This document shows, in pieces, positions 463 through 1,544 of a DNA stretch of 32,000 bases. The notes beneath the pieces are model-generated. The model searched no databases. It saw nothing but the letters and a program-made list of their open reading frames with translations, and had not been told where the DNA came from. Source of the DNA: Cereibacter sphaeroides 2.4.1. Lineage in GTDB: Bacteria > Pseudomonadota > Alphaproteobacteria > Rhodobacterales > Rhodobacteraceae. Every line of letters starts with the position of its first letter. The stretch's first letter is position 1. A program made the translations under genes and the position numbers. Location: assembly GCF_000012905.2 (NCBI RefSeq), contig NC_007494.2, positions 540,001 through 572,000 of the forward strand, in the 5' to 3' direction.

Positions 463-1149
463 GTGAGCGCCGTCTACGACCATGTCCGCAGCCGGACAGC
501 CGACGAAGACTCGCGCGATCTGTCCTTCGCCTGGGACCAGTGGCGTTACACCGACTACTTCCTTTTCGAGGAGGATACCTCGGCCGCCCCCTTCGAGAAC
601 CTCTCCGATCTGGCCTGCCGTGGCCTCGTCATCGCCGTGGCCGAGGCCATCACCGCACGGTTCCATGCGCACCGCGGCACGGAGGAGGCGCGGTCCTATC
701 TCGATGCCGCCTGGGCCACGATGCTGCGCGAGGGCGCCTGCGACTACGCCCTCCTGCCCGCCGAGGACTGGCCGGGGCCGGTGCGTGGCGCCCTCCGGGC
801 CGCCATGCTCGTCGTCAACGACACGCTCCACGAGGCGCGCGACGATGGCGACTTCCCCGCCCGCTGCGTCTGGATCCTGCAGCTCGCGCGCCACGTCCTG
901 CCGCCGCGCCTTCGACCCGAGTTCGAAGCCTGGGTCGCCGTCGCCACCTCGCGCCTCGCGCGCCACTGGCCGGTGCCCGAGCACCGGAGCGGCCTCTTCG
1001 CCGAGAGCTTCGACCGCGGCCCGCCGGTCGGGCCCTGCACCTTCCTGCCGCGCGATCCCGGCACCCCCGAGAGCGCCGCGGCCTGCCTCGCCCGCCATCT
1101 CGCGACCCTCGCCGGCAACCCCTGGCTCTTGCCCCCCGATACCGCCTAG
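463..1149 (+). CDS. Hypothetical protein
   Basis: GTG start at 463 preceded by AGGCAGGAG (446-454). 228-codon GC3-biased frame. No recognisable motif. Stop TAG 1147-1149 overlaps the stop of the convergent minus-strand gene. Confidence 0.55.
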   Translation: MSAVYDHVRSRTADEDSRDLSFAWDQWRYTDYFLFEEDTSAAPFENLSDLACRGLVIAVAEAITARFHAHRGTEEARSYLDAAWATMLREGACDYALLPAEDWPGPVRGALRAAMLVVNDTLHEARDDGDFPARCVWILQLARHVLPPRLRPEFEAWVAVATSRLARHWPVPEHRSGLFAESFDRGPPVGPCTFLPRDPGTPESAAACLARHLATLAGNPWLLPPDTA

Positions 1150-1544
1150 TTCAGTTGCACGCTCGCCCCCTGGAGCCTGTTCGCACCGCTGGCCCGACTC
1201 AGGATCTCGGTGCCGCGGATCGTGACCCGCCCGTCCGGCGCCAGCGTGATCGAGGCGCGCCCGCAGCGCAGCACCACCTCGCGCCGCCCCTCCAGAACGA
1301 GGCGCGTTCCGTCGAGTTCGGCCTCCGGCACCGCCCGGCGGATCAGGCCCAGCACCACCGGAGAGGCTCCGACCTCGGCCACCACCGCCTCCGCTCCCAT
1401 ATCGGCGGCGGAGACCGCCACGACGGTTTCGGCCAGCGCTTCCGCCCCGCCGATCTCCACCCGCAGGAGCCCGCAGGGATCGATCCCGAGGATCCGGCCC
1501 CGCAGCAGGCGCGAGCCCGCCGCGGCAAAGCCACCGTCATGCAT
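1146..1544 (-). CDS. Small gp5/gpV-like (VgrG C-terminus-like) protein, 132 aa; possibly the DUF6484 family
   Basis: In-frame ATG at 1544 (MHDGG...) overlaps the clpV stop codon (1537-1539) by 8 nt. The C-terminal 46 aa align without gaps to the C-terminus of the VgrG in this window (..VLRCGRASITLAPDGRVTIRG..ASG..L....VQLN vs ..TLKCGSAEITLKKDGTIVLKG..ASG..L....INLN). The longer ORF start at 1568 would lie inside clpV. Confidence 0.7.
   Translation of the reverse strand: MHDGGFAAAGSRLLRGRILGIDPCGLLRVEIGGAEALAETVVAVSAADMGAEAVVAEVGASPVVLGLIRRAVPEAELDGTRLVLEGRREVVLRCGRASITLAPDGRVTIRGTEILSRASGANRLQGASVQLN

Follow-up and report, generated by a model that had tools for sequence, protein, structure and literature searches.

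A small DUF6484 protein resembling the VgrG tip and encoded behind clpV: a likely class II TvpC in the type VI secretion cluster of Cereibacter sphaeroides

The DUF6484 proteins PA0096 of Pseudomonas aeruginosa (H1-T6SS) and VP1395 of Vibrio parahaemolyticus have been named TvpC and assigned to "class II Tvp" in type VI secretion systems (T6SS; bioRxiv 10.64898/2026.02.23.707444), and the same gene set has been described as T6SS "synteny type A" (PMC11883445). TvpC is proposed to be a short trimeric mimic of VgrG that templates a pre-complex of a PAAR-like effector, TvpA and TvpD, after which VgrG replaces it (bioRxiv 10.64898/2026.02.23.707444). The stretch of Cereibacter sphaeroides 2.4.1 DNA analysed here (32,000 nucleotides; contig NC_007494.2, positions 540,001 to 572,000 of the forward strand; "the window") carries a complete T6SS and, immediately behind its clpV gene, an open reading frame (ORF) of 132 codons, referred to below as tvpC. 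Its product is almost certainly a divergent, minimal member of DUF6484. We favour a class II TvpC acting as a template or stand-in spike, and put identity and mechanism together at a probability of about 0.7. A search of the literature available found no paper on the C. sphaeroides T6SS itself.

The protein belongs to the same family as PA0096, VP1395 and the DUF6484 protein of the Proteus mirabilis pef cluster. In common with these class II proteins it has a short tail, an OB (oligonucleotide/oligosaccharide-binding) fold and a beta-prism that is very short, and it lacks a gp27 domain. Its gene keeps the same company: a DUF2169 protein (TvpA), a PRK06147 or thiolase-like protein (TvpD), a HEAT/ARM-like protein, a DUF4150/PIPY effector and small 3' ORFs. 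It differs from them in lying at the bottom of the size range, in scoring below the Pfam threshold and in lacking the GDPxRP motif; its gene follows clpV, overlaps its neighbours at both start and stop, converges with the effector operon and lies 20 kb from vgrG. In the type A (pef) cluster of P. mirabilis, killing is lost when a transposon enters any of the genes, that for the DUF6484 protein among them (PMC11883445).

The only TvpC with experimental support is the class III (DUF3540) protein of Serratia marcescens Db10, which is likewise a gp27-less mimic of VgrG with a proposed PAAR/DUF2169 pre-complex and subsequent replacement by VgrG. However, it belongs to another Pfam family, has a much longer prism (81 A) and is partnered by the pentapeptide-repeat proteins TvpB/TvpAB instead of TvpD. 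TvpAB, TvpB and Paar1 co-purify with Serratia TvpC and also with VgrG1, yet TvpC and VgrG1 were never recovered with one another; the TvpC complex forms without VgrG1 while the VgrG1 complex needs TvpC, and loss of TvpC abolishes both the VgrG1 complex and activity (bioRxiv 10.64898/2026.02.23.707444).

Is a frame of this size, in DNA of 72.6% G+C, a genuine gene? An earlier sequence-only reading of this DNA had proposed a 132-residue protein here, with a start codon overlapping the clpV stop by 8 nt. Both statements hold: the ORF is preceded by a GGAGG site and has conserved homologues, its G+C content at the three codon positions (0.79/0.53/0.88) is typical of genuine genes in the window, and the tvpC ATG (1544-1542) and the clpV TGA (1539-1537) together form ATGCATGA. 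A longer reading is possible from an ATG at 1568, but the start at 1544 was adopted because 23 of 57 aligned homologues (~40%), nearly all of the closest ones among them, begin with MHDG. The identical 132-residue protein occurs in 201 blocks of the assembly index, for which 24 contigs were read. It shares 97% identity with a C. sphaeroides "hypothetical protein", and across 11.5 kb the window has 97.9% identity with ATCC 17029 chromosome 2. At the other end of the gene, the stop codons of tvpC (minus strand) and of the convergent 228-residue ORF (plus strand) overlap by 4 nt (1146-1149), which leaves no intergenic room for terminators between the converging operons; in Tabrizicola-like relatives the corresponding gap is ~180 nt.

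The assignment to DUF6484 follows from transitive homology and not from the curated Pfam threshold. The protein itself reaches 11.3 bits against PF20093 (E 0.59; cut-off 27.6), with residues 16-68 aligned to positions 2-61 of the 61-position model. Its full-length homologues of 50-55% identity (E ~1e-30) carry PF20093, and 53 of the 57 aligned homologues match the model at E<=1e-3, the best at 3.8e-26. A search for homologues sharing words with the protein returned 104 at E<=1e-3, and an exhaustive profile search 1365 clusters (50% identity) at E<=1e-30. The sequence-only reading had thus named the correct family, although what Pfam models is the OB region towards the N-terminus (16-68) and not the C-terminal motif that the reading had linked with DUF6484. 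Pfam returned no PF05488 (PAAR) or PF13665 (DUF4150/PIPY) match in the protein and no match to Phage_GPD, the gp27 hub, for which 132 residues are too few. A match to PF05354 (Phage_attach; 20 bits, sub-threshold, found in one of the 57 members) and NCBIfam matches with E above 0.03 were discarded as noise. Proteins of the clpV-linked clade are the shortest of the family (132-136 residues; the top 149 representatives have a median length of 182). Some DUF6484 members of 255-270 residues (P0105 and P0106) have two tandem OB-like domains followed by a single conserved tip.

The protein is a VgrG reduced to a short tail, an OB fold and the last ~50 residues, the blunt tip. In the AlphaFold2 (AF2) monomer (mean predicted local distance difference test score, pLDDT, 83) a five-stranded barrel occupies residues 13-67 (pLDDT above 90) and further strands lie at 90-110. 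The best PDB matches of this model in Foldseek are the spikes of PVC (Pvc8), R2 pyocin, AlgoCIS and phage P1, together with VgrS and VgrG1. Similarity to the R2 pyocin spike (4s37) is limited (template modelling score about 0.38, E about 4e-4), and for all spike matches E-values are modest and root-mean-square deviations high, as must be expected where a monomer model stands in for an intertwined trimer. A profile built from the 57 homologues matches the C-termini of the solved VgrGs 4MTK, 4UHV and 9MLP at E about 1e-7 and separately picks out the end of the OB domain (424-454) and the tip (561-611) of VgrG1. The OB fold that had been suspected in the N-terminal half is therefore supported by the barrel, by the spike matches and by the profile match to VgrG1, and the recommended comparison with spike proteins and VgrGs returned contractile-injection spikes at the top.

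The resemblance to VgrG includes the tip. Residues 82-127 of TvpC align without gaps to residues 709-754 of the window VgrG, with 17 identities and 26 positives in 46 positions (BLOSUM62 score 84). The count of 17 in 46 had been given correctly, but for the last 46 residues, which is not strictly so: aligning both terminal ..LN ends needs one 8-residue gap. That both proteins end in LN-stop is correct as claimed. The C-termini match at E 9e-9 in BLASTP with compositional adjustment, and hhalign of the family profile with the tip of the window VgrG reaches a probability of 93.7% (E 1.8e-7). Because these matches and those to the solved VgrGs are all significant, the tip similarity exceeds composition; the compositionally adjusted BLASTP contradicts the possibility, raised beforehand, that it reflects composition and nothing else. 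The window VgrG carries a Phage_GPD domain (331 bits), and its OB region matches the DUF6484 model at E 5.5e-5. Across the family the ~50 residues of the tip are the best conserved part (mean column entropy 1.0 bit; the OB barrel has 1.97). The terminal Asn, which in the window TvpC closes the sequence ..GASVQLN, is invariant in 57 of 57 aligned homologues and 149 of 149 representatives, with nothing beyond the blunt prism, and is also present in all nine full VgrGs encoded beside tvpC genes. The motif ..(R/K)CG.A.ITL..DG.i.i.G is common to TvpC and VgrG. The single His of the window TvpC is at position 2.

The Cys of this motif deserves a separate word. Cys94 of TvpC (window 1263-1265, minus strand), within L(R/K)CG, is invariant in the 57 aligned homologues and present in at least 128 of the 149 representatives. 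A matching Cys occurs in LKCG of the window VgrG (~residue 721, roughly 22254-22256, minus strand) and in VgrG1 of P. aeruginosa, and most tvpC-linked VgrGs have Thr or Val at this position. In a TvpC trimer the three Cys would share one level of the prism.

Beyond the class II proteins, the closest structural relatives are VgrG itself and the small spikes. VgrG/TssI (P. aeruginosa PA0091 VgrG1, PDB 4MTK; the window VgrG) has an OB fold and terminal prism strands homologous to those of TvpC, which is about one sixth of its size and lacks the gp27/Phage_GPD hub and the long Gp5_trimer_C prism. Small phage and tailocin spikes (P2 gpV-type, such as R2 pyocin 4S37; Mu gp45-type; phage P1) also have an OB fold followed by trimeric beta-structure. 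In contrast to TvpC, they carry a pointed, metal-binding apex domain and are a structural part of the baseplate; the window protein stops at a blunt prism whose last residue is Asn, and it lacks a His/Cys apex motif. The cone domain of PAAR/DUF4150 (PIPY) tip proteins is absent from TvpC, and the DUF4150 protein is the product of a separate neighbouring gene.

That neighbouring gene lies just outside the window. No PAAR, DUF4150 or DUF2169 domain was found in the window ORFs scanned, and the sequence-only reading had noted the lack of a PAAR gene. This is true of the window, but a DUF4150 gene lies ~0.7-1.7 kb past its left edge, and the apparent absence arises because the window ends before the partner operon. 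In contigs that encode the identical 132-residue protein and in chromosome 2 of ATCC 17029, an adjacent operon convergent with tvpC has the order TIGR02270/HEAT, DUF2169, PRK06147, Tox-PAAR-like/DUF4150 and two small ORFs, of which the last two (3-440 and 463-1149) fall inside the window. A complete class II Tvp module (TvpC, TvpA, TvpD, the HEAT protein and the PIPY effector) is therefore present in an alphaproteobacterial T6SS. In the relative L002 the gene of the PIPY effector (333 residues) lies at 11881-12882 (minus strand). The C-terminal ~200 residues of the effector have no family match and are possibly a new toxin domain. The 228-residue gene is kept beside tvpC in Paracoccaceae loci; this protein and the 259-268-residue one, both conserved in those loci, are candidate immunity proteins.

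How unusual is the position behind clpV? Gene context was surveyed in about 20 sampled loci, which do not amount to a census. In other lineages tvpC lies directly 3' of vgrG (six loci: L008, L010, L013, L015, L017 and L018); in L016 a truncated ORF 5' of tvpC, which has no family data, has a VgrG-like C-terminus and is probably vgrG, and in L014 tvpC is divergent from vgrG. DUF2169 and DUF4150 genes are both near the DUF6484 gene in eight of the ten other loci inspected. Fewer partners are seen in two truncated loci: L017 shows DUF2169, and L008 only vgrG and the HEAT gene. In L012 the neighbours of the DUF6484 gene are a DeoR regulator and sugar-transport genes, and the 10 kb 5' of it contain no T6SS gene; it is an orphan copy or else arose through metagenome assembly. 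The order clpV-tvpC occurs in Cereibacter, in two Tabrizicola metagenome-assembled genomes (MAGs), in two further Rhodobacterales/Paracoccaceae MAGs and in Gemmobacter, where the pair faces, head-on, the small ORFs, the PIPY effector gene, tvpD, tvpA and the HEAT gene. In Cereibacter and its Paracoccaceae relatives tvpC has moved from behind vgrG to behind clpV. Co-occurrence with clpV and with the absence of PAAR, which the sequence-only reading had marked for a survey, does not extend to the family: the clpV linkage is confined to one lineage, and DUF4150 is near in most of the loci inspected.

Within the clpV-linked clade the two genes are closely juxtaposed throughout, but the overlap itself is not conserved. 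The 8-nt overlap is found in Cereibacter and Gemmobacter only (in the latter as ATGGATGA). In Tabrizicola-like relatives a TAG stop of clpV is followed by a 9-11-nt spacer holding GGAG and then by the tvpC ATG; the relatives L002 and L004-L007 all keep a GGAG motif where the window tvpC has its GGAGG. Co-transcription of tvpC with clpV is well supported. Strict translational coupling is not well supported, and stoichiometric coupling to ClpV was rejected, as the overlap is not clade-wide and tvpC has its own Shine-Dalgarno site; the earlier expectation that the protein is probably made stoichiometrically with ClpV is therefore unsupported, the more so as most of the family follow vgrG. An N-terminal MHDGxF (window 1527-1544, minus strand) is conserved in the clpV-linked Paracoccaceae clade, including the non-overlapping relatives L004-L007, so that overlapping coding cannot account for it. 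In other DUF6484 proteins the N-terminal tail is long and variable.

What would such a protein do? Three TvpC chains would form a stub presenting a VgrG-like blunt tip, on which the neighbouring PIPY (DUF4150) effector would dock, wrapped by TvpA (DUF2169) and TvpD (PRK06147-like). TvpC would next give way to VgrG, whose gene is 20 kb distant, and Hcp and the sheath could not polymerise before this exchange. The homology, fold and gene linkage described above are results of this analysis; trimerisation, pre-complex and hand-over are carried over from the literature, in which the DUF3540-type TvpC of Serratia alone has been shown to behave in this way and PA0096 has been modelled. Of the roles that the sequence-only reading had considered, the "VgrG-tip mimic" agrees with the current TvpC model (bioRxiv 10.64898/2026.02.23.707444). 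Several points weigh against this interpretation. The class II pre-complex is an AlphaFold model for PA0096 (bioRxiv 10.64898/2026.02.23.707444), and the genetic support for class II consists of the P. mirabilis insertions. The window protein is sub-threshold for its own Pfam family (11.3 against 27.6 bits) and lacks the GDPxRP that typical DUF6484 members share with VgrG. Its gene is not beside vgrG, an arrangement that is usual but not needed for function; vgrG is 20 kb away in the same cluster. Finally, when the last 60 residues of nine distinct TvpCs were scored against the last 90 of the adjacent VgrGs (10 TvpC-VgrG pairings), own pairs scored no better than foreign ones, and nearly every TvpC scored highest with the window VgrG. 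There is thus no co-evolution signal backing a specific hand-over. Locus-specific co-evolution of TvpC and VgrG was rejected, the resemblance being family-wide homology, and the mimicry, as judged from these sequences, is generic.

Alternatively, the TvpC trimer may be a secreted part of the spike, stacking on or capping the VgrG prism, or replacing VgrG, and fired with the tube. It has the OB fold and prism architecture of small phage and pyocin spikes (R2 pyocin 4s37, phage P1) and the same blunt ..LN tip as VgrG. However, it lacks the gp27/Phage_GPD domain by which a spike sits on Hcp or the baseplate, so that the "minimal trimeric spike" suggested earlier is also unsupported, and it has no metal-binding apex domain of the gpV/gp45 type, the prism ending bluntly and the whole protein holding one His. 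No case is known to us in which an OB domain docks on the tip of a VgrG. Serratia TvpC, moreover, was never found with VgrG1; their complexes are mutually exclusive, and the notion of a cap or extension of VgrG is unsupported in view of this analogue. A fired mini-spike or VgrG cap is hence unlikely. It is also conceivable that TvpC works as a brake, a false VgrG tip that keeps the complex of PIPY effector and chaperones from reaching VgrG too early, before the machine is ready; its level would be tied to sheath recycling by co-expression with ClpV. The tip homology is the same as under the template model, the mutually exclusive Serratia complexes fit, and in Paracoccaceae tvpC is in the clpV operon and not with the effector genes. 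Against such a decoy, loss of Serratia TvpC abolishes, and does not enhance, the VgrG1 complex and activity, the P. mirabilis insertions (that in the DUF6484 gene included) abolish killing, and the clpV linkage is restricted to one lineage; we consider a decoy improbable.

A decaying VgrG fragment or over-called ORF with no function of its own would be a natural suspicion in a genome of 72.6% G+C, where high-GC DNA yields many long false ORFs, several of which overlap at the tvpC site, and where the direct Pfam match is sub-threshold. It is scarcely credible in view of the G+C content of 0.88 at third positions in the tvpC frame, the conserved Shine-Dalgarno site, the identical protein in 201 assembly-index blocks (24 contigs read), and full-length homologues in 1365 clusters at E<=1e-30 that share the same terminal Asn; conservation effectively refutes it. 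Within the template model that we prefer, the authors of the Tvp preprint call the TvpC-VgrG hand-over step unexplained (bioRxiv 10.64898/2026.02.23.707444). Because tvpC ends the clpV operon (by overlap or at 9-11 nt) and has a clade-conserved MHDGxF tail, the ClpV unfoldase might strip the PIPY-TvpA-TvpD pre-complex of its TvpC trimer and let VgrG take over, an idea that we rate as very improbable.

The remainder of the cluster is listed in Table 1. The second IcmF/TssM-like gene, directly 5' of vgrG, lacks IcmF-related_N and is additional to the full-length tssM. The M15 peptidase encoded between this gene and that of the PP2C phosphatase may serve as an effector that acts on peptidoglycan or as an accessory enzyme. 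Between 18098 and 21724 three long ORFs overlap, and G+C by codon position identifies only the plus frame 18110-21622 (TssM) as coding. A 1208-residue minus-strand ORF was considered as an effector 3' of vgrG and rejected as a high-GC artefact, with no families in that frame.

Table 1. Features of the tvpC locus, of the T6SS cluster in the window and of the partner operon beyond its left edge (window coordinates; aa, amino acids).
Feature	Position	Strand	Basis or remarks
tvpC-like gene (DUF6484 family)	1146..1544	(-)	132 aa plus stop; ORF and sequence read directly
Shine-Dalgarno GGAGG	1551..1555	(-)	6 nt 5' of tvpC ATG, within 3' end of clpV
8-nt overlap ATGCATGA, tvpC start / clpV stop	1537..1544	(-)	sequence read directly
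OB-like beta-barrel, TvpC residues 13-67	1344..1508	(-)	AF2, weak PF20093, profile, Foldseek
Short beta-prism / blunt tip, TvpC residues 82-132, terminal Asn	1149..1301	(-)	homology to VgrG tip
clpV (tssH), 889 aa	1537..4206	(-)	Pfam AAA_2, AAA_lid_9, ClpB_D2-small, Clp_N; directly 5' of tvpC, same operon
ppkA	4320-6326	(+)	
tssA, tssB, tssC, hcp, tssE, tssF, tssG, fha, tssK, tssL	6334-18101	(+)	
tssM	18110-21622	(+)	frame chosen by GC-by-codon-position
vgrG, 767 aa	22113..24416	(-)	Pfam Phage_GPD, Phage_base_V, Gp5_trimer_C, Gp5_C
VgrG tip mimicked by TvpC, residues 706-767	22116-22301	(-)	BLASTP, ungapped alignment, hhalign
Second IcmF-like gene, 802 aa	24433-26841	(-)	IcmF-related and IcmF_C domains
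M15 peptidase (Peptidase_M15_4, D-Ala-D-Ala carboxypeptidase-like), 282 aa	26841-27689	(-)	
PP2C phosphatase	27693-28742	(-)	
228-aa protein	463..1149	(+)	no family match; last gene of convergent operon
259-268-aa protein, C-terminal part only	3..440	(+)	cut by window edge; no family match; directly 3' of PIPY gene
Tox-PAAR-like/DUF4150 (PIPY) protein, 333 aa	~0.7-1.7 kb beyond window left edge	convergent	113 bits
PRK06147 "thiolase-like" protein (TvpD), 363 aa	beyond window left edge	convergent	424 bits, cut-off 342
DUF2169 protein (TvpA), 340 aa	beyond window left edge	convergent with tvpC	300 bits
TIGR02270/HEAT-repeat protein, 429 aa	beyond window left edge	convergent with tvpC	139 bits

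The C. sphaeroides protein adds a minimal, rearranged member to a family that has been described before but hardly characterised, and it does not represent a new type of system. Only the gene order is out of the ordinary, with tvpC after clpV and not after vgrG in Paracoccaceae. A likely function can be given to a gene annotated "hypothetical" that current Pfam thresholds miss. As tvpC need not be linked to vgrG, neighbourhood surveys restricted to the 3' side of vgrG will miss the Paracoccaceae form. The clpV linkage is the sole lead to something new and, speculatively, could hint at how TvpC is removed. At 132 residues TvpC is close to the smallest natural VgrG tip, and it could be a compact structural subject for learning how the PIPY/PAAR cone recognises the blunt end, the terminal Asn and the Cys of LRCG.

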